This document shows, in pieces, positions 8,305 through 46,427 of a stretch of DNA of 64,000 bases. Every line of letters begins with the position of its first letter. The stretch's first letter is position 1. The DNA comes from a virus. Location of the stretch: the IMG/VR virus record IMGVR_UViG_3300025930_000008, positions 1-64,000 of that record, one strand, 5' to 3'. Under the pieces are notes generated by a model. That model had not been told where the DNA came from. It was given only the letters and a program-made list of their open reading frames with translations, and did no database searches. Position numbers and translations under genes: made by a program.

Positions 8305-8313
8305 ACCGGTACC

Positions 8314-8559
8314 TTAGGGCATCAGGTCAGTCCTGTCAAGCCATCGGCGTAAATGAATAACCTTCGGCTCAGCATGATACCCTCGGTAAGTCCAATGGTC
8401 TTTCACATTCAAAAATCCCTTGAGGGGATACGGATACTTCGCGGGTTTCCTACCAGTAGGTCCACCGATACGTAGATAAACTTGGTCCCCATCTATCCGC
8501 TCTACCCAAAAGGTTTCGCTGTCCTTAAACTGCCATAGTTCACCGTACTTTATCATCAC
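8314..8559 (-). CDS. hypothetical protein
   Basis: 81 aa ORF. Confidence 0.55.
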   Translation of the reverse strand: MMIKYGELWQFKDSETFWVERIDGDQVYLRIGGPTGRKPAKYPYPLKGFLNVKDHWTYRGYHAEPKVIHLRRWLDRTDLMP

Positions 8560-8891: not shown

Positions 8892-9189
8892 GACCAGTCT
8901 CGCAATACGACCTGAGCATACGGTGGAACCGTGCGTCAGTAAGGCGCTGACCGTTCTTATGCTGTTGAGTATCCCAGCACTCAGCCGGGGTGCAGTCGCC
9001 AGCGTACAGCTTGGTACGCTGTAGCTTATGGTTGCAGCCCTTGTGGGCGCGTGAGAACCGTACGGCGTAGATGCGCCAGCCCAGCCCTCGGTCAGCCATC
9101 GACCACACGGTCAGACGGCCATCTTGAATACGCTGCACCATGCAGGTATCCTTAGTCCTACCCAGGAGCGTCCAAGTCTCGCTTGTCAT
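8881..9189 (-). CDS. hypothetical protein
   Basis: promoter TTGACA-N17-TATCTT-N8-ATG. Confidence 0.6.
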   Translation of the reverse strand: MTSETWTLLGRTKDTCMVQRIQDGRLTVWSMADRGLGWRIYAVRFSRAHKGCNHKLQRTKLYAGDCTPAECWDTQQHKNGQRLTDARFHRMLRSYCETGHGL

Positions 9190-9358
9190 CCAAAGGAAAG
9201 ATAGGGCATTGACGGGCCTGTGTCAAGTGCTGAGTCCACAAGTCCCGAAACCATTTATTCTCCCGCTCCACGGCTTGACAGTTGCCGCCCTCTATGGTAC
9301 AAGTGCAGAAGGGCCTAGCGCAATAGGGCGAGCGGGCCATTCCCGCATTATAGCACGG

Positions 9359-11695
9359 CTAGGTGAAGCGGCCCTTTGGATTTTCAAACGGCGTGCGGCT
9401 GCCGGGGAGCGGAGTCAGCTTCTCAGGCTCTATGAAACATCGTACGTGATAACTTGACATAGGACCGCCCTTGAGAGGATACATAACCTCCACCCAACCC
9501 GTTGTCTGATCCTGAGATACTACCTCAACCATAGCATTCTTTGGTATTTCCATCCACTGACCTGCGTCATATGCGCCTTCACGGCCCTCTGACTGTCCTA
9601 GCGTAGCTTCCTCCATACGTGCGGCTGAGCCAGGAGGGAATTCATCACCGGCTTTAGCTACATGGTAGGATAAAGTTTCCCTAGAAGGATCAGTGCCCCA
9701 CATACCTTTGGTTGTCTCGTCAATATGATATCCGTTGGCATTTGCGAATTGCTCTAGGTATGGTTGGTATTTAGGATGCAGAGGGCTATTAGCATGGCCT
9801 AGGGTTTCTAAAAGCTGTCCCGATTCTGGCTTAAGATAAAAGGCGGACAGAGGAAATCCATTATGATTTCTCAACGACAAGAGTTGCATAGGCTCGCCAT
9901 TATGGGACGGGCTAATAGGCTCCTGGCTGTACTGATGAAATTGATTCTTATCCGTTTTCCAGAGTTGATTCAGCCGTGGTCCATCCTTTTGTAGACAATT
10001 ACGCATCATCATTCCCTCTCGGAAGGTATCTCCCCGGGTGGGAACGGTCTTGATATGAAATCCATCATCCCATTGATGTAGAATTTCACCGCGATCTGGA
10101 AAGGGCTTAGCATACTGCTCTACCATCGCCCGCTGTTGGGTTTGACTCAACCCTGCAACATATACTCTAGAGAATGTTCCAGGCTGCTGTAGTGGGTTAG
10201 CAGGGTATGGCCCAGGACGAGCGCCAGGGACAGACACAGGCTGCGGCGGTGGTAAAGTTTGTTCCTGTAGAGGATATGGCGGAATGATATTGCTGTCTGC
10301 CGGTGGAGCAAATTGATTCATAGGAATCAGGCCCATCGACGGGTTAGGCCCGTGGATAGCAGGGGGCGTCATATTCAACGGGATCCGGAAGTTAGGAATA
10401 TGTGGAGCGCCTGTAGGTATAGGGTACCCCGGAATCTCTGGCGCGCCCGTAGGTGGTGCATCGAACCCAGGGATAGGATTCAACGCAGGAGTAAGCTGTG
10501 GTCCATAAGGGGATGGAGCCATAGGCATACCTCCGGGTCCACCAGGGCCAGTGTATACCATACCCTCTGAGCCAGGAGCCTGTTCCCAATTCTGGGATGG
10601 CATATTAACAGGACCCTGTTGACCGAATGGTAGCGCAGGCTGTTGCCAACCCTGAGGTGTAGCTATACCCCCGCCCGGAGGCATACCCGCAGGCGGTGAC
10701 CCAGGTGGTAGGCCGGTAGGCTGATCGTCAACCGGGGTTGCTAATGACTTCCAATAAGCTGCGAGTACGTGCGCACATGGCCGTCCCTCATACTTTTTCC
10801 ACTGTCGTGTACGCTGAAATGCATACTGATCCCAGGGGCATTCACACGTCCATTGTGTGATTGCGCGGGAATTTGGATCGTCACGGGAAATCTCACATTG
10901 ATACTCTCCGTGATCGCCGATAACGTGAGCAACGACGTTGTTGTAACCATTTCTTAGTAGGGTAACATTCCCTGATTGAATGAGGCGCTTGGCCTTCGCC
11001 ATAATGTCAGGCCATGCGGCAGTCTTACGAACCTTAGAAGTCCAGTCCGTTTCATCGTCGCCAAAATCATGAGCCTTGGCAAAATACTCTTCCTGATTTT
11101 CTATGTACTGAGGCGTGACCCCTAGATGGTCGCCAAGAGAATCCTCTACCTCTCTCATATTGGGAGGATAAGCGTGACCTACAAGACGTGGATAATACCA
11201 GTGCAGAGTACCATCCTCCATAATACGTCCGGGGTGATGCGGCTCCGCATATGGAGAGCCATAGGCTATACCCTCAAACCCCGTTGTGGTACGCATCGCA
11301 TCAGTATGGAACTGCCCATGATGCCCCAGAAGAATTTGATTCCTCTGCGGAAAGTAGAGAAATGGATAATCATTGGAGTGTTTCTCGTCACCCCAATATT
11401 CGGTATCGAAATCAGGACGAATGATCGGGATACGAGTCTTATACTCGTCTGGATCAAATAGCTGCTGTTGGTCAAAGGAAAACTGTGCGTGTTTTATTCC
11501 ACACGCAGCCAATTCCTCACGACGGATCGTGTAGGCGAGCCAGCGGTCGTCAACAGTGCCACCAGTAGATAAGATGACCGCAGTTCCGGGTTCTGATTCC
11601 CACCAAGTAACACGCGATGGACCAATCTTGGCCTCGCGCTTAGGTAAACTTACTGGCGGGCCTGAGCCTACGCCGTCTTTTATGTCCCACGCCAT
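9359..11695 (-). CDS. multi-module protein with SWIM-type Zn finger, Pro-rich linker, PcfJ-like and SH3-like segments (putative virion polyprotein)
   Basis: CECPW...CAH; REGMMMRNCL; C-terminal VEVVSQDQTTGWVEV. Confidence 0.65.
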   Translation of the reverse strand: MAWDIKDGVGSGPPVSLPKREAKIGPSRVTWWESEPGTAVILSTGGTVDDRWLAYTIRREELAACGIKHAQFSFDQQQLFDPDEYKTRIPIIRPDFDTEYWGDEKHSNDYPFLYFPQRNQILLGHHGQFHTDAMRTTTGFEGIAYGSPYAEPHHPGRIMEDGTLHWYYPRLVGHAYPPNMREVEDSLGDHLGVTPQYIENQEEYFAKAHDFGDDETDWTSKVRKTAAWPDIMAKAKRLIQSGNVTLLRNGYNNVVAHVIGDHGEYQCEISRDDPNSRAITQWTCECPWDQYAFQRTRQWKKYEGRPCAHVLAAYWKSLATPVDDQPTGLPPGSPPAGMPPGGGIATPQGWQQPALPFGQQGPVNMPSQNWEQAPGSEGMVYTGPGGPGGMPMAPSPYGPQLTPALNPIPGFDAPPTGAPEIPGYPIPTGAPHIPNFRIPLNMTPPAIHGPNPSMGLIPMNQFAPPADSNIIPPYPLQEQTLPPPQPVSVPGARPGPYPANPLQQPGTFSRVYVAGLSQTQQRAMVEQYAKPFPDRGEILHQWDDGFHIKTVPTRGDTFREGMMMRNCLQKDGPRLNQLWKTDKNQFHQYSQEPISPSHNGEPMQLLSLRNHNGFPLSAFYLKPESGQLLETLGHANSPLHPKYQPYLEQFANANGYHIDETTKGMWGTDPSRETLSYHVAKAGDEFPPGSAARMEEATLGQSEGREGAYDAGQWMEIPKNAMVEVVSQDQTTGWVEVMYPLKGGPMSSYHVRCFIEPEKLTPLPGSRTPFENPKGRFT

Positions 11696-11984
11696 TGCGA
11701 TACTTTGGTTTCCCTGCTTTGATCCTACGTATTATAGGCGCGACTACGGCCATTTGATGAGGCAGTAGATCACCCTTGACTCTGTTGCATAATGGGTGAG
11801 CAGGCTGGCAATTCCAATAAGCGTGAGCGCCACCCTTAGATGTGGGTACGATGTGATCGACTGTCCATGACTTTTGATTAACCGGCTCTCCACAAATACC
11901 ACATCGTCCCGCGTATCGTCTTAGCAATTCGTCGCGCCGTACATGCTCAACGAACTTGCCTCGAACCTTCGCCTTTCGGGACAA
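11640..11984 (-). CDS. HNH endonuclease
   Basis: CGIC...VDHIVPTSKGG...NCQPAHPLCNRVK. Confidence 0.9.
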   Translation of the reverse strand: MSRKAKVRGKFVEHVRRDELLRRYAGRCGICGEPVNQKSWTVDHIVPTSKGGAHAYWNCQPAHPLCNRVKGDLLPHQMAVVAPIIRRIKAGKPKYRNGVGHKRRRRLRPASKFT

Positions 11985-12122
11985 TTAATTCCTTCGTGTT
12001 TCTCTAGTAGGGTACAGTTGGAGTATAATCTCCAACATCTGTCTCCTAACAGTCGCGTTAGGAGTGGTACGGATATCCTCTATGACTCGCTTGACGAGTT
12101 GACGCTGTAGAGGGTTTTCCAT
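11985..12122 (-). CDS. small hypothetical protein (45 aa)
   Basis: MENPLQRQLVKRVIEDI..., abuts the HNH start; GTAA-type promoter motif upstream. Confidence 0.5.
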   Translation of the reverse strand: MENPLQRQLVKRVIEDIRTTPNATVRRQMLEIILQLYPTRETRRN

Positions 12123-12147
12123 TCACCCATTACCACACGGAGGCAAT

Positions 12148-12410
12148 AAAAAAGGCGGGTAGCTAGCCGCTATCCCGCCTCACAACGCTTGGCATCATCG
12201 TATAAAAATGATAACCCATCGGTTGAGGGTTCCCGCCCTCAAGCTAGACCGAGTGGTACCTAGTATTCCCAAACAATATGGCCCGTGCCTCACTAGGAAA
12301 GACGCGGTTGTATCTGAGATAGGGCAGTCAGATACATGCAAGCCTACTTGACCTGAGGCATACCGCACTCTGGCGGACGTAACCCCAGGGAGTCTCCCTA
12401 TCGCTTTAGT
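12148..12410 (-). ncRNA. unassigned structured ncRNA (~260 nt)
   Basis: promoter TTGACA(12445-40)-N17-TAAGCT, terminator at 12148-12180, no ORF, helices TGCCTCA/TGAGGCA, TGTATCTGA/TCAGATACA, CCTAGT/ACTAGG. Confidence 0.65.
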
Positions 12411-12448
12411 CCAAACAGCTTAGCCGATCCTACGACGGCTGTCAAGGC

Positions 12449-13612
12449 TCAGTCGTCCTCATCCCACAAGTCTGCCCATTCGGAATCGGGCATTGCGGTC
12501 ATAGGATCGAAGGGATTATACTTGCCGCCATGGATCGGTGTCAAGCCCTGCGACTGTAGAAATTCATGGTACTGTGACGGGTCCTTGACCTTCCAGTTCT
12601 CAATTACGCTGGCTCGACCATCGGGTGCGATGTAAATATTCGCCACAGAGTTATTATTTACATGCCTTAGCTCAGGACCATTCAGACCAATATGATGCGG
12701 CCAACCATGCTCGTCCGTCTGCCAGTGGTGTAAGGCAAAGTCTGACGGCACTGATCCCTCAGGCGTAGTAGGCTGACCATTAGGCTTCATGTAAATAATG
12801 CCCTTACCAAACTTCCCTGGCCTCCAAGGATTTTGATACACTTCCGGCTCAGGACTAAATATGTTTCTATCGTGAGGATCCATGCCAGCCCTGCGAGCAA
12901 TATATTCGCCAGATACCTCAGCGATACGAGGGAATAACTCACGGTTAGCCAGGAACTTATAGACGATGTTGGCCTGGGAGAAATCTCCCTTACCCGCCTT
13001 CTGGTCCCTCATCCTACGCTGATGAATCTGATGCCAGAACTTAACGGCCTTATCCGGCTCGTAGCGTAATAGCCTCTCCATCTTATCGGCTGACTCTAGG
13101 GCATACACATAATCTGTATTATATTCACGCTCTACGTCATGGACACGGCTCTTGTCCGGTGGCTGAATCCAATTCTGTTGGATAATATCATAGCCTGAGC
13201 GCAAGCCAGGTTGATATAGGTCAGCCATTCCAATGTTCTTTGCTACAACGAAACCCTGCATCTGGTAGGGTGTACCCGGCAGAGTAGTACCATCTACATG
13301 CTCAATCATCAGAGCGATCAACCTAGCCCTATCCCACTCCGGTAGGAAATGCGGGTCCACGAATAGAGACACATCACAGTCTGACGCTGCGCTGTACTGA
13401 TACGTCGTGAGCGAACCGGTGAGGACTAGCTGTAACCATTGCTCAGGGTGAGGATGGAAGGTCTTGGCATGGCGATGGATTTCAGAGATTATCCAACGTC
13501 GATGTACTGGCTTGAGGGTAGGGGTAGGAGAGCCAGGATCATCCCACACATCAGGCGGTAGAGTATCGTGGATCGGGTCAAGAATATTTGACTTACGACC
13601 AGTCATCCTCAT
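12449..13612 (-). CDS. Pol-beta superfamily nucleotidyltransferase with an extra C-terminal module
   Basis: LVLTGS...SDCDV (hG[GS]x9-13DhD). Confidence 0.7.
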   Translation of the reverse strand: MRMTGRKSNILDPIHDTLPPDVWDDPGSPTPTLKPVHRRWIISEIHRHAKTFHPHPEQWLQLVLTGSLTTYQYSAASDCDVSLFVDPHFLPEWDRARLIALMIEHVDGTTLPGTPYQMQGFVVAKNIGMADLYQPGLRSGYDIIQQNWIQPPDKSRVHDVEREYNTDYVYALESADKMERLLRYEPDKAVKFWHQIHQRRMRDQKAGKGDFSQANIVYKFLANRELFPRIAEVSGEYIARRAGMDPHDRNIFSPEPEVYQNPWRPGKFGKGIIYMKPNGQPTTPEGSVPSDFALHHWQTDEHGWPHHIGLNGPELRHVNNNSVANIYIAPDGRASVIENWKVKDPSQYHEFLQSQGLTPIHGGKYNPFDPMTAMPDSEWADLWDEDD

Positions 13613-16600
13613 CTTCCTCTATAGGCTCATGCTCAGCATTGGGATCACCGTGAATGTTTGGGTCAAGCGCATGTAACCCATCAACGTTAGGGAAGGGTAT
13701 AGAACGACGGTCATAAGTGCCATACAGACCTGCATAGCCATCCGGATGAATATGGAATCGACGGTCATACGCGCTATCCCAATCATCCTGAATGCCCATA
13801 TTTTTCTCATAAGAATCATGGATAGGTTCGCCATCCTGATAATTGTCATAAAGATTCCATGTATGGTAATTACCATTCTGATCCATCGTACCTTTGCCCC
13901 AAGTACCAGGCTTCCAATTCAGGCGATGGCCCGGAGCATGAGTCACAGGAAAATCGCTGCTAGGCTGCGACTGCGACCAATTAGTATACGATGATAAATC
14001 CTCGGGGAAGTCTCTGAAATATGCTTCAACTTCCTCTGACGGCCATTGCTGAATCTCTTGCCACTCGTCTGAACGGCCAGCCGTCCTAGCTCGGATCAAC
14101 CCAAGCAATGCTTCTTTAGTGTTCAACTGCGGATTGTCCAATACCTGCTCATGTAGGAATTGGAGCGTCTTACCAATCTCAGGCCCCTGGGGAATACCCG
14201 CAGCCAATAGGTCACTACCATTCACCGCTAGCTGTGAAAGCGCCGTAGGGACGTTTCCTGCCCGCACAGAGTTGATTAGCGTGCGATGCTGGTCCACCGA
14301 AAGCGATGGATCAGTCGGATACTCAGACTTTCCGTCTTGGTCAGCCTGTCGCAAAATAAGCAGCCTATCCGCTAGGTCCCCCGTCTTATTTAGGAACCGG
14401 CGAGCGCCCTTTTCAGTATTGAAACCGGGGAACATATGGTGCATGATGAGGGCTGAGATAGGACTGATACGAGCATTAGGGTACCTTAGCTCCCCTAGCC
14501 TCGCTGCCGCCATATCCGCACCGATTGTTTCGTGAGTGCCACCGATACCGGGTGCCTTTTGGTAGAAGTGTCCCGAAACATTATTGCTGCCGCAATTCTC
14601 ACATACCTCAGCTTCACCGGGATGGGCGTGGTAGCAGTCCCTACACTCTGACCACCGGCTCGCAGGTTTTCCGATATCGTGCAGGAGTGCCGCCAACTTG
14701 AGGTCGGGGTCGTGTGGTGCGAGTTTTTGGGCATGTTCTAATACACTCAGTAGGTGCTGATCGAGTAGCTGCTCATGATGAGGATTCTTCTGGTCATAGT
14801 CTCGCGTTGCCTCTACCTCAGGGAAGATATATTTCATGAGGCCAGTATCCATCGCTAGCCTCATTGCGCGAGCCGTATCTACATCTTTGTGATTCCCGTC
14901 ATCCTCGTAGCCAAACATCTTATCTAGCTCTGTGCGAATACGGTCATTCGGTAGATTTTGCAGAGCGTGAGCATTATCCATCATCTGATCCTCTGTTTCA
15001 GAATTCGGGATCAAGCCATGCTTGGCTACAGCGGTAAGGGCACGCATAGTCCGTAGAGGGTCATCAGAAAGAGACTTGGTATGAAGGCTTCGTAGAGTTC
15101 TTCTTTTAATATCTGACAAACCCCCAAAGGGATCAAGAAGCTGACCTGTAGACAGGTCAACAGCCATAGCATTAGCGGTAAAGTCACGACGGTATAAATC
15201 TTCCTCGGGCGTCATTGTGTGGTCAGCGTCAATAGCAAAGTCCTTATGCCCACCGCCACCGGTAGCCCGCTCTCTACGCGGGATAGCAATTTCTACTTCC
15301 TTACCCTTGCCACGACCACCTTCGTGATAGCGGAACACACCGAAATCCTTACCGGTGAGGTCTACGCCACCCTTATTCTGCTTGCCCAATGCGGCTAGGA
15401 TACGATTTACTTCATCGGGATGAATACCCGTCACCATCAGGTCTAAATCGTTAGGCTCTTTGCCTAGTAGGGCATCACGCACAGCGCCACCCACGACATA
15501 CACATCGCCACCGGCAGCCTCTAAAGCCTTCCATGCGCGGAAAACGATAGGGTCAGCCGCAGCTAACGCCTGCACGTAGCCACCAATATCCTGACCGGCT
15601 AGCTTAGTCTGCTTGCCAGAATCGTCGGTTAGGTCTACTGACTTAATCTCCATGTGCGGATGATTGTAATACCACAACTCAAGCATGTGACGCACGGTAT
15701 AGGGCATATTGGTCATTGACCGGATATGCACCTTGCCACCAGGCTCATAAGTACCTTCTACTATGCCACCAGGGGTGAATTGGCCGGGGATATCAGACTG
15801 CTTCGTTCCCGGCTTCCCAATAGTTATTTCATCCTCTTGAATGTCATAAATGAACGGAATAGGAGCCGCGATCTGATCCTTACCTTCATCTGCCTTACCG
15901 GTAATAAACTCCCAGCCAGACATGCCACGACCCTCAGAATCCTCGGTTGCGTCATCCTCAGCATAAGGCTCATGCGGGATCAGTACCTTACGGATATTCT
16001 CCAAATGCTGTGGGCCGGTGCGCATACGTAGGCCACGCACACCTGGGTCCTCAACATACTCATCCTCTGGCGGGTCTACCCCTACCCATCCCTCATGGCT
16101 GTCCCTAAATGGAGGCCACCCCATATCCTCATAAAGATCATGGTGATAGTCACCCGGAGGGCCTAAAACAACGTGATTGAGCTTATAGTTGTAGACTACT
16201 GGCCTACGCCAACCAAACTCGCTCATATCAGCTTGGCCCGGGGCGTGCTTTACTGTGATCTGAGGTAATTCAGCAGATTCGTGGAACGATGGCATTTCAT
16301 GGAAATGAGGCGGGAAAGTCGCATCCATATCCAACCAGGCTGTATCCTTAGTGGGGTCATCATGGTTATCCCCCATAGGTTCCTCATTGGTCCTATGACG
16401 CAGGTATAGATTCCACGTAGGGAATAGGCGCTCACAGTCTGGACACTTGAACACGCCTCCGGGCTGACGCTCGTCCTTAGGCTCTTCAAACATATTATGC
16501 TCATCGGGGTTATTGAAAGTGCCAGCGCCAATGCTGTCAATCTCCATATCCTCGATAGTTTTCAGACCTGAGTCATTTCCTGCAATTATGGTCAATCCGT

Positions 16601-17189
16601 TGTCTGAGGCCCATTCGGCTAATGCCTCTATAGGCACTGTCCCGTAAAGGAAGGCTTCCTTGCCCCGTATATGAGCAGCGCCGCTAGAATTTTTTAAGGC
16701 ACTTTTTCTCCTGGCTAGGTTAGCGACCCCATCCTCATATGCGATGTAGTAGCTTTTTACAGGAGCAAACTCAGAACCCGTGTCAACCGGCTCACCTTGT
16801 AGGTCGGTCATGCCTCCCCACTGCCACCCGGCTGTTTCAGTGTAATCCTTGAGGATACGGGCTAATCCGTGGGCAGCTACATTTCCGGTAATGCGCCAAG
16901 AAGCCTTACCCAAATCGACGTGAACAGTACCCATAGCTGTAGGCCCAACATGATCTGCACGTACACCGGCATGGCTTGCTAGCTCGTCTAGTTCGTGATC
17001 CTCAGAAATGTGAAATTGACCGTTGCCATAGAACCATGTATAGTCCTCGACACCAGCCTTTTCCAACCAGTCAGGCCCACCACCCGGAGGCGTGGACTTA
17101 CCATCTATTGTCTCTGGTAGCTCACCGGGGTATGGCTCAGTCGCCCAGCCACCGGCCCCGCCACCATCTGCTGCTGTCCAGAGAGTCAT
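13593..17189 (-). CDS. cca: multi-domain protein containing a class II CCA-adding tRNA nucleotidyltransferase and HD domain
   Basis: VYVVGGAVRDALLG, DLDL, EEDLYRRDFTANAMA, DDPLRTMRA, LLHDIGKP. Confidence 0.9.
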   Translation of the reverse strand: MTLWTAADGGGAGGWATEPYPGELPETIDGKSTPPGGGPDWLEKAGVEDYTWFYGNGQFHISEDHELDELASHAGVRADHVGPTAMGTVHVDLGKASWRITGNVAAHGLARILKDYTETAGWQWGGMTDLQGEPVDTGSEFAPVKSYYIAYEDGVANLARRKSALKNSSGAAHIRGKEAFLYGTVPIEALAEWASDNGLTIIAGNDSGLKTIEDMEIDSIGAGTFNNPDEHNMFEEPKDERQPGGVFKCPDCERLFPTWNLYLRHRTNEEPMGDNHDDPTKDTAWLDMDATFPPHFHEMPSFHESAELPQITVKHAPGQADMSEFGWRRPVVYNYKLNHVVLGPPGDYHHDLYEDMGWPPFRDSHEGWVGVDPPEDEYVEDPGVRGLRMRTGPQHLENIRKVLIPHEPYAEDDATEDSEGRGMSGWEFITGKADEGKDQIAAPIPFIYDIQEDEITIGKPGTKQSDIPGQFTPGGIVEGTYEPGGKVHIRSMTNMPYTVRHMLELWYYNHPHMEIKSVDLTDDSGKQTKLAGQDIGGYVQALAAADPIVFRAWKALEAAGGDVYVVGGAVRDALLGKEPNDLDLMVTGIHPDEVNRILAALGKQNKGGVDLTGKDFGVFRYHEGGRGKGKEVEIAIPRRERATGGGGHKDFAIDADHTMTPEEDLYRRDFTANAMAVDLSTGQLLDPFGGLSDIKRRTLRSLHTKSLSDDPLRTMRALTAVAKHGLIPNSETEDQMMDNAHALQNLPNDRIRTELDKMFGYEDDGNHKDVDTARAMRLAMDTGLMKYIFPEVEATRDYDQKNPHHEQLLDQHLLSVLEHAQKLAPHDPDLKLAALLHDIGKPASRWSECRDCYHAHPGEAEVCENCGSNNVSGHFYQKAPGIGGTHETIGADMAAARLGELRYPNARISPISALIMHHMFPGFNTEKGARRFLNKTGDLADRLLILRQADQDGKSEYPTDPSLSVDQHRTLINSVRAGNVPTALSQLAVNGSDLLAAGIPQGPEIGKTLQFLHEQVLDNPQLNTKEALLGLIRARTAGRSDEWQEIQQWPSEEVEAYFRDFPEDLSSYTNWSQSQPSSDFPVTHAPGHRLNWKPGTWGKGTMDQNGNYHTWNLYDNYQDGEPIHDSYEKNMGIQDDWDSAYDRRFHIHPDGYAGLYGTYDRRSIPFPNVDGLHALDPNIHGDPNAEHEPIEEDEDDWS

Positions 17190-34766: not shown

Positions 34767-34839
34767 TAGCTCCGGTAGGAATTGAACCTACGCATGGAGG
34801 CTTATGAAACCTCTGCCTTAACCACTTGGCTACGGAGCC
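34767..34839 (-). tRNA. tRNA-Met(CAT), elongator (or Ile2)
   Basis: cloverleaf, loop TTCATAA. Confidence 0.85.
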
Positions 34840-45757: not shown

Positions 45758-45824
45758 AGCCCCGGCATAGGGTTCCCGCCCTATGTTACTCCGGGGTCGT
45801 CCACGGACAATTAGTCGATGGACA

Positions 45825-46286: not shown

Positions 46287-46427
46287 GCAGCAGGCTCCCT
46301 CATGGGGCGTACCTCCCATAGACACTACCCGACAGGTTCCCGCCTGTCAAGGCGAGGGAACCTGCGTGCTTAATCCCCGTGGGTACGCACGGATTAGGTA
46401 CTGCGATGGCCCCTGACTGATGGGCAG

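Follow-up and report, generated by a model that had tools for sequence, protein, structure and literature searches.

A putative stand-alone RNA gene with a predicted double-pseudoknot domain in an uncultured phage lineage

Introduction

To our knowledge, few phage-encoded structured RNAs apart from tRNAs have a known function. A first-pass annotation of phage DNA had singled out a stretch between the gene for a putative NTase and a gene for an HNH protein as a non-coding RNA with its own promoter and terminator, and had raised, without taking it as established, the possibility of a partnership between that RNA and the neighbouring nuclease. This locus raises three connected questions: whether the stretch is an RNA gene in its own right, whether the fold proposed for it is conserved in any relative, and whether the genes on either side have anything to do with it. 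Here we address these questions by comparative sequence analysis.

Results

The locus and its neighbouring genes

We analysed the first 64 kb (the window) of an IMG/VR virus record that is 107 kb long and estimated to be 67% complete. A scan with Rfam covariance models gave 35-36 tRNA matches and a tmRNA in this phage, on the minus strand, which is the coding strand of every gene inspected in 7-17 kb and of all RNA genes. The features around the putative RNA are, in the direction of transcription:

13593-17189, minus strand: 1198-aa protein with a CCA-adding/HD module
12449-13612, minus strand: NTase, a 387-aa protein with no Pfam or PDB sequence match
12148-12410, minus strand: putative non-coding RNA of about 263 nt, with a promoter and a terminator at its ends
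11975-12147, minus strand: structured stretch from the terminator to the HNH start, outside the RNA and given as context
11640-11984, minus strand: HNH protein, 114 aa (Pfam HNH, 1e-12)
9359-11695, minus strand: SWIM-finger protein, 778 aa

The 387-aa protein has a conserved N-domain of 240 residues, in which a GS...DxD pattern is kept in 23/23 aligned relatives. A structural model of the protein averages pLDDT 70 (80-98 over most of the N-domain), and a fold search with this model returned only transferases of the Pol-beta fold (CD-NTases, ANT, MNT, Cid1 and the CCA enzyme), all of them weak matches, the best at E = 4.5e-3. "NTase" is hence a soft but reasonable name, resting on a predicted structure. 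The N-domain is widespread (317 proteins, many at 60-75% identity) and has no Pfam model; its closest relative, P0003, is 88% identical over the conserved domain. Among the uncultured phages that encode such proteins, the C-terminal fusions differ (Fic and others). We also considered a module common to the NTase tail and the cca enzyme; the BLASTP match was not significant (E = 0.09-0.12), and a search of the phage's own genome likewise failed to return it.

The only Pfam domains matched by the 114-aa protein are HNH, HNH_5 and HNH_4, and in the window its gene has atypical codon usage (score about 0). Between the terminator of the putative RNA and the start of this gene, the 11975-12147 stretch is itself structured (z = -3.13, with 0/200 shuffles as stable), with three perfect hairpins within long-range stems. 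It includes a 45-codon frame (12122-11985, minus strand) that we regard as doubtful, having a weak ribosome-binding site and a codon score of about 0. None of the fetched loci contains a homologue of this stretch, which may be a structured leader of the HNH gene rather than a gene.

Promoters, terminator and coding potential of the putative RNA gene

The expression signals assigned to the stretch by the first-pass annotation can be read directly from the minus strand, and a second promoter lies upstream of them:

12515-12544, minus strand: second promoter, TTGACA-N18-TATAAT, within the last 30 codons of the NTase gene
12417-12445, minus strand: RNA promoter, with -35 TTGACA (12445-12440), a 17-nt spacer and -10 TAAGCT (12422-12417)
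12368-12195, minus strand: 57-codon GTG frame, codon score -0.375 bits per codon
12148-12181, minus strand: intrinsic terminator, a hairpin (12181-12152) followed by U6 (12153-12148)

The predicted RNA start, at ~12410, lies 39 nt past the NTase stop codon on the same strand. A consensus promoter scan leaves out the 12417-12445 site because TAAGCT matches the consensus at only 3/6 positions. Across the window, there are 12 sites of the form TTGACA-N16-18-TAnnnT on the minus strand and 2 on the plus strand, a six-fold enrichment. The second promoter, 99 nt upstream of the RNA promoter, is the sole 12-of-12 consensus match in the 60 kb scanned, and is predicted to give a longer transcript of about 360 nt. 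At the other end of the unit, the proposed U-tract terminator comprises a GC-rich stem of 12 pairs with one bulged A, a 5-nt loop and U6; its fold energy is -20.9 kcal/mol (z = -4.3, with 0/200 shuffles as stable). An automatic terminator scan missed it, presumably because of the bulged base in the stem.

Promoters of the same class occur elsewhere in the window and in related loci. Two on the minus strand, at 9198-9226 and 8311-8339, stop 6-8 nt ahead of the start codons at 9189 and 8304, and TTGAC-type promoters in two related loci likewise end 6-8 nt before start codons (L006, 6785-6814; L013, 4698-4726). This spacing points to leaderless messages in the phage group. Between the terminator at 12148 and the promoter at 9226, we found no TTGACA-type promoter in the window; the conserved 778-aa gene therefore seems dependent on read-through.

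One part of the initial description was wrong: the unit was said to hold no open reading frame longer than a few codons, and frames of 57 and 47 codons lie inside it, the latter on the plus strand. The score of the 57-codon frame is at the low end of what spurious small frames give, as against +0.44 for the NTase gene, and by this measure the frame is probably non-coding. Moreover, the gaps between the window sequence and its homologue in a second phage, described below, are 1, 2, 10 and 13 nt in length, which rules out a common reading frame. The features expected of a generic stand-alone small RNA gene, namely a promoter, an intrinsic terminator and the lack of a coding frame, were all found here, and the expression signals are present in both phages. 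We conclude that 12148-12410 is likely to be a stand-alone RNA gene, as first proposed.

No match to a known RNA family

The first-pass annotation could not assign the RNA to a family, and neither could we: it has no Rfam match at gathering scores or at E<10. Rfam 15 at gathering scores, run over the whole window, returned only the tRNAs and the tmRNA elsewhere; relaxing the threshold to E<10 for region 11500-13000 gave two spurious matches, both outside the RNA; and an Rfam search of the copy in the second phage found no match. A literature search likewise found nothing specific to such an RNA.

Several particular candidates were set aside. The group I intron core (RF00028) has no match at E<10, and no interrupted gene is seen: the alignment of the NTase with the homologous protein of the second phage extends to the last NTase residues, and the N-terminus of the 778-aa gene product matches separate genes in relatives. 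A bacterial Y RNA (YrlA) acting with Ro was discarded for want of a TROVE or RtcB match in the 107-kb record, and a tRNA-like element because none lies within 11000-14000. For an antisense regulator, duplex energies at four nearby start regions were no better than those at shuffled targets. CTAG is not enriched (4 in 300 nt is within the genome's range), and defence-system models gave only faint, HNH-level matches.

A homologous RNA in a second uncultured phage

Scanning metagenome contigs with an alignment of the three closest NTase proteins identified a 2926-bp contig, L016, that encodes a 392-aa NTase 64% identical to that of the window over its full length. Directly 3' of this gene, a covariance model that contained only hairpins and was derived solely from the window sequence matched a copy of the RNA at 2461-2597 (27.8 bits, E = 1e-8). 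The L016 promoter, TTGACG-N17-TAGTCT, is in the same place as in the window, over the NTase stop codon, and is followed by about 300 non-coding nt and then by a hairpin of -20.9 kcal/mol with U4. The 12515-12544 promoter of the window is not conserved there. The blocks conserved between the two sequences are AAGCG(A/G)UAGG, the 13-nt CAAGUAGGCUUGC, CUGACUGCC, UCUUUC and the CGGGAA loop. A second L016 promoter, TTGACA-N17-TAGTCT, lies at 2777-2805, 14 nt past the U tract of the terminator. It would drive a second small non-coding unit (2777-2926) with a CGGGAA hairpin of the same type as in the window, 10 nt beyond which the contig ends; this arrangement suggests a short array of RNA genes in L016.

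All comparative evidence on the RNA comes from these two sequences, both from uncultured phages. Blastn of the RNA against 50,697 phage records gave no further homologue, and tblastn of the NTase protein against the same records gave no match and thus no cultured relative. The RNA, searched both as DNA and with model R2, had no match in four related phage genomes. Applying nhmmer, blastn and the models to all fetched loci revealed no copy besides that in L016, and scans of viral contigs for exact patterns, taken from the blocks conserved between both copies, also found none; a pattern scan of prokaryote genomes yielded two matches, both of which fail the model and are taken as chance. Among the viral contigs, searches with the single NTase, cca-enzyme and HNH proteins returned no relative, the 778-aa protein matched only one locus (L002), and the NTase alignment retrieved 11 loci, all at <=60% identity.

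Predicted fold of the 5' domain and its conservation

Comparison of the two sequences suggests a conserved domain in the 5' part, ~155 nt long and with four hairpins (P1-P4), in which the loops of P3 and P4 would be used for pseudoknots PK1 and PK2:

12394-12402, minus strand: 5' strand of PK1, GAUAGGG(AG), pairing with the P3 loop (12324-12318)
12363-12376, minus strand: hairpin P1, CCGC...GCGG; in L016, CCGGC-UAA-GCCGG in the same place
12339-12350, minus strand: hairpin P2, CAAG-UAGG-CUUG; the 13-nt CAAGUAGGCUUGC is identical in both phages
12310-12335, minus strand: hairpin P3, with 6 conserved pairs, 9 possible in the window
12283-12307, minus strand: hairpin P4, with 9 positions and a 7-nt loop, UCCUAGU
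12259-12297, minus strand: PK2, P4 loop CCUAGU (12297-12292) with ACUAGG (12264-12259)

P1 can be extended by CCUGGGGU (12389-12382) pairing with GCCUCAGG (12359-12352), in the window only. The 9-bp hairpin of the first-pass annotation is present at 12336-12328/12317-12309 on the minus strand. Between the window and L016, P3 has three pairs changed on both sides and one changed on one side, all of which can still pair. In P4, four pairs are changed on both sides and one on one side, and a position mismatched as C/A in the window is a C-G pair in L016; each copy of P4, folded alone, gives the same shape. The P3 loop, CUGCC(C)UA(U/C)C, includes the 3' strand of PK1 (12324-12318). This helix reads GAUAGGG/CCCUAUC in the window and GGUAGG/CCUACC in L016, with one A-U to G-C change and with one G and its partner C lost together in L016; RNAalifold picks it unprompted. 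Because the full PK1 of 9 pairs and P3 together leave linkers of only 2 nt, the two may form partly or alternately.

PK2 is the crossing of CCUAGU with ACUAGG that had been offered as a possible pseudoknot. It has the geometry of a classical H-type pseudoknot: the loop strand is preceded by 1 nt and followed by none, and the linker is 18 nt long. In L016 it becomes UCUAGC/GCUAGA with a 19-nt linker, and the two pairs changed on both sides are compensatory, which strengthens the original suggestion. A further helix proposed at the outset, UGCCUCA (12360-12354) with UGAGGCA (12292-12286), fared less well: it can be drawn in the window but is not conserved, since L016 lacks its 5' strand, owing to a 10-nt deletion, and the 3' strand of the helix forms part of the local, covarying hairpin P4 instead.

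Altogether, 12 base pairs are changed on both sides between the window and L016 yet remain paired, and none is broken by a change. Nine of them are in P1-P4 and PK1 (three in P3, four in P4 and one each in P1 and PK1), as against 0-3 when partners are slid; PK2 adds two and the outer helix of a fifth hairpin, P5, adds one. For P1-P4 and PK1, 98.3% of the cells in the two-sequence alignment are paired, as compared with 33-49% when partners are slid by 1-3 columns; these figures are to be read knowing that the P1-P4 alignment was fitted to the structure, and two sequences rule out a statistical test of covariation. P3, P4 and P5 were obtained from folding the window alone, and PK2 came from the first-pass annotation, all before L016 had been seen; PK1 and PK2 were outside the model that made the alignment of the window with L016. 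The retention in L016 of the predictions that preceded it therefore provides fair tests of this putative fold, on two sequences only. The fold of the whole RNA has z = -2.74, and that of the 5' domain by itself does not exceed mononucleotide shuffles in stability (z = -0.5, -0.2). Folding energy is not the evidence for the 5' domain; thermodynamics alone is weak.

A recurrent hairpin in the 3' part

Downstream of PK2, two more hairpins are predicted before the terminator:

12219-12252, minus strand: P5, with outer helix UCGG/CCGA, a 6-nt 5' bulge, inner helix UUGAGGG/CCCUCAA and hexaloop CGGGAA (12235-12230)
12193-12213, minus strand: P6, hairpin UAUCAUU...GAUGAUG, between P5 and the terminator

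The hairpin with a CGGGAA loop had been noted before, and we find it at 12242-12223 on the minus strand. The P5 architecture recurs at L016 2884-2916, with UCGG/CCGA replaced by UCAG/CUGA (one compensatory pair); the local alignment of the window P5 region with the second L016 unit scores 45, compared with 17 +/- 3.5 for shuffles. There is one CGGGAA-type hairpin in each of the two small units of L016, and in that phage the 5' domain and the P5 module appear, from the positions of the signals, to be transcribed separately; in the window they appear to share one transcript. PK2 and the terminator are separated by 80 nt in the window, and by about 140 nt in L016. P6 is part of the minimum-energy fold, but is not among the listed pairs above 0.6 probability; the position of its equivalent in L016 is beyond the contig end.

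The hairpin is not confined to this locus. The 15-nt core of P5 is identical at window 42817-42803, and related CGGGAA-type hairpins with other stems lie at 45778, 46342, 47646 and 45594; all of these, the 42817-42803 copy included, are on the minus strand, in transcribed spacers of the tRNA array. The minus strand of the phage, which is the transcribed one, has five instances of GGC[GA]GGAACC; the four related genomes have none in that form. One of the tRNA-array hairpins, CUUGACAGG-CGGGAA-CCUGUCGGG (46322-46351, minus strand), overlaps a TTGACA-N17-TAGTGT promoter, coinciding exactly with its -35 box and spacer.

The locus in relatives

If the RNA were a partner of the HNH protein or the NTase, it should accompany their genes. 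Most fetched loci keep the order NTase gene, variable segment, SWIM gene. The slot after the NTase gene is empty in L012, where the genes abut; in L006 and L013 it holds a TTGAC-type promoter driving small leaderless frames, and in L018 a long HNH gene. A TTGACA/TTGACC-N17-TAnnnT promoter is positioned at the NTase stop codon in several relatives, with differing cargo. Homologues of the HNH protein (38-54% identical) are encoded directly upstream of the SWIM gene in L017 (6828-7145), L018 (6028-6243) and L009 (6357-6608), and the HNH and SWIM genes overlap both in the window and in L017. The two thus look like a conserved gene pair, and the HNH gene less like a stray homing endonuclease.

Model R2 found no copy of the RNA in the L012, L006, L013, L017, L018 and L009 loci, nor in three complete related phage genomes and one that is 87% complete. 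The RNA is present in 1/19 distinct fetched loci with an NTase homologue, that of L016, where the 481 nt downstream of the NTase gene contain the RNA and no HNH gene before the contig end. The RNA-nuclease partnership raised by the first-pass annotation, and likewise one with the NTase, is not supported by these relatives, which carry NTase and HNH genes without the RNA. Judged by gene order, the HNH gene goes with the SWIM gene and not with the RNA, and the RNA unit looks like a lineage-restricted, inserted RNA cassette.

Discussion

Taking the locus as a whole, we lean, by a little, towards an independently transcribed RNA cassette that acts in trans, with a double-pseudoknot domain and a hairpin bound at its hexaloop. 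Uncultured soil phages of one narrow lineage would carry the cassette, with the NTase gene on one side and the HNH/SWIM pair on the other. A host polymerase of the sigma-70 type would make the RNA, which would end at its own terminator, fold into a compact globular domain and act in trans as a stable RNA. The double-pseudoknot domain would be its working part, and the CGGGAA hairpin could be the docking site of one protein or nuclease that also handles transcripts of the tRNA array. Several observations weigh against this reading. The seeming dependence of the 778-aa gene on read-through favours regulation in cis; in its nested fold, the 5' domain gains no stability over shuffled sequence; PK1 at full length and P3 leave each other only 2-nt linkers; and we found no convincing antisense target among the four nearby start regions.

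The main rival is a cis-acting leader, in which the 5' domain would be a sensor or antitermination element gating read-through at 12148, whether as a riboswitch-like element, by binding a protein, or in the manner of HK022 put or lambda nut/boxB. Read-through at this point would reach the 45-codon frame (ORF45), the HNH gene and the 778-aa gene, the last being a conserved core gene with no TTGACA-type promoter of its own between 12148 and 9226. The unit is arranged like a transcription attenuator, with a promoter, then a conserved structured domain, a variable segment and a terminator; two tandem promoters, one of perfect consensus, feed the unit; and P5 has the place of a boxB-like site, between promoter and terminator. 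We nevertheless consider a leader unlikely. The L016 terminator stands directly before the new TTGACA-N17-TAGTCT promoter, so read-through control would be pointless in that phage, and the need of downstream genes for read-through is not common to all members. Furthermore, the conserved domain stops 80 nt (window) or about 140 nt (L016) short of the terminator, inspection of the window folds revealed no pairing that competes with the 5' strand of the terminator, and no riboswitch or leader family matches. It is improbable, too, that the cca-NTase operon message simply ends in this RNA as a structured 3' untranslated region, with hairpins that block 3' exonucleases and with the terminator being that of the operon. 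No terminator separates the NTase stop codon from the RNA 39 nt further on, and upstream transcripts must therefore run through the RNA; against this, a promoter is placed exactly at the NTase stop in both phages, L006 and L013 also have one there ahead of other cargo, most relatives have the NTase gene without such a tail, and a protective tail needs neither conserved pseudoknots nor an invariant 13-nt hairpin block.

That the RNA serves the HNH nuclease or the NTase next to it, be it as guide, cofactor or substrate, seems to us very improbable. Adjacency, which is seen in the window only, speaks for it, as do the weak resemblance of the NTase fold to Pol-beta transferases that handle RNA or nucleotides and the NTase C-terminal extension shared by both RNA-bearing phages. 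It would have to be reconciled with HNH homologues that adjoin the SWIM gene without the RNA in L017, L018 and L009, with an HNH protein of 114 residues that is a bare HNH domain, with the presence of the RNA in 1/19 distinct NTase loci and 0/4 related genomes, and with the lack of a match to HEARO or any other guide-RNA family. We give scarcely any credence to a self-processing RNA, whether a self-cleaving ribozyme or what is left of a group I intron that was once home to the HNH gene. The double-pseudoknot architecture, the phage context and the nearby HNH gene would fit, but even at E<10 there is no match to a ribozyme or intron family, and no gene is interrupted, the NTase C-terminus being complete and the 778-aa start being as in relatives.

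Returning to the trans-acting cassette, a bolder proposal is that the double-pseudoknot domain represents a new functional class of phage RNA, be it catalytic, ligand-binding or a subunit of an RNP; this is a speculative idea that we think rather doubtful. Such an RNP, made by the phage, would form part of its unusually complete RNA toolkit, alongside 36 tRNAs, a tmRNA and a CCA-adding enzyme. If the new-class reading were true, the CGGGAA hairpin would serve as a shared address label, by which one factor is directed both to this RNA and to transcripts of the tRNA array. What marks the locus out is the presence of hallmarks of a working RNA: expression signals, an invariant hairpin block and two putative pseudoknots with compensatory changes. 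The phage around it is, moreover, one with a heavy investment in RNA machinery. A partner or activity, if found, could show how such phages organise or protect their own RNA processing, and could also explain the CGGGAA "label". The HNH gene is most likely a bystander, which removes an attractive but mistaken guide-RNA reading. The weight of the finding is that of two sequences, both from uncultured phages.

Known systems offer partial parallels. HEARO, or omega RNA, is associated with IsrB, a protein of about 350 aa with a split RuvC and an HNH domain. Like it, the RNA described here is a structured RNA of a few hundred nucleotides upstream of an HNH-domain gene; unlike it, the adjacent protein has 114 residues and an HNH domain only, with no RuvC, the RNA does not match HEARO (RF02033), and RNA and HNH gene do not co-occur in relatives. 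The CGGGAA hairpin resembles the hairpins bound by CsrA/RsmA in being short, in having GGA in a hexaloop and in being reused on several transcripts with varied stems. Its loop is C-G/A-G-G-A-A, as compared with A-N-G-G-A-N for CsrA/RsmA, and each transcript here has one such hairpin and not a sponge-like array of them.

Among phage RNAs, the phi29 pRNA (RF00044) is a stand-alone phage RNA gene whose loops form pseudoknot-type pairings. The RNA of the window is likewise a putative stand-alone phage RNA gene of the 170-260 nt class, with its own promoter and terminator and predicted loop pairings, and the palindromic CUAG core of PK2 would in principle allow pairing between molecules. It differs in having no Rfam match and in the type of phage, the contig here being at least 107 kb with a tRNA array, and nothing ties it to packaging genes. 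The species 1 and 2 stable RNAs of T4 (rnaC and rnaD) are small, structured phage RNAs whose function is not known; they lie inside a tRNA cluster and are released by tRNA processing. The likeness, one of description, is that of a small, stable-looking structured RNA in a tRNA-carrying phage, and the RNA described here has a hairpin motif in common with the spacer RNAs of the tRNA array. Unlike rnaC and rnaD, it is ~22 kb away from the array, of which the closest tRNA gene is at 34767, with no tRNA within 11000-14000, and it has its own promoter and terminator. In its genomic setting, the unit is closest in kind to the "morons" described by Hendrix and colleagues, accessory promoter-to-terminator cassettes between conserved phage genes. 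Classical morons are protein-coding and were described in temperate phages; the unit described here is, like them, self-contained and placed in a variable slot that holds other cargo in relatives, but its own cargo appears to be a structured RNA.
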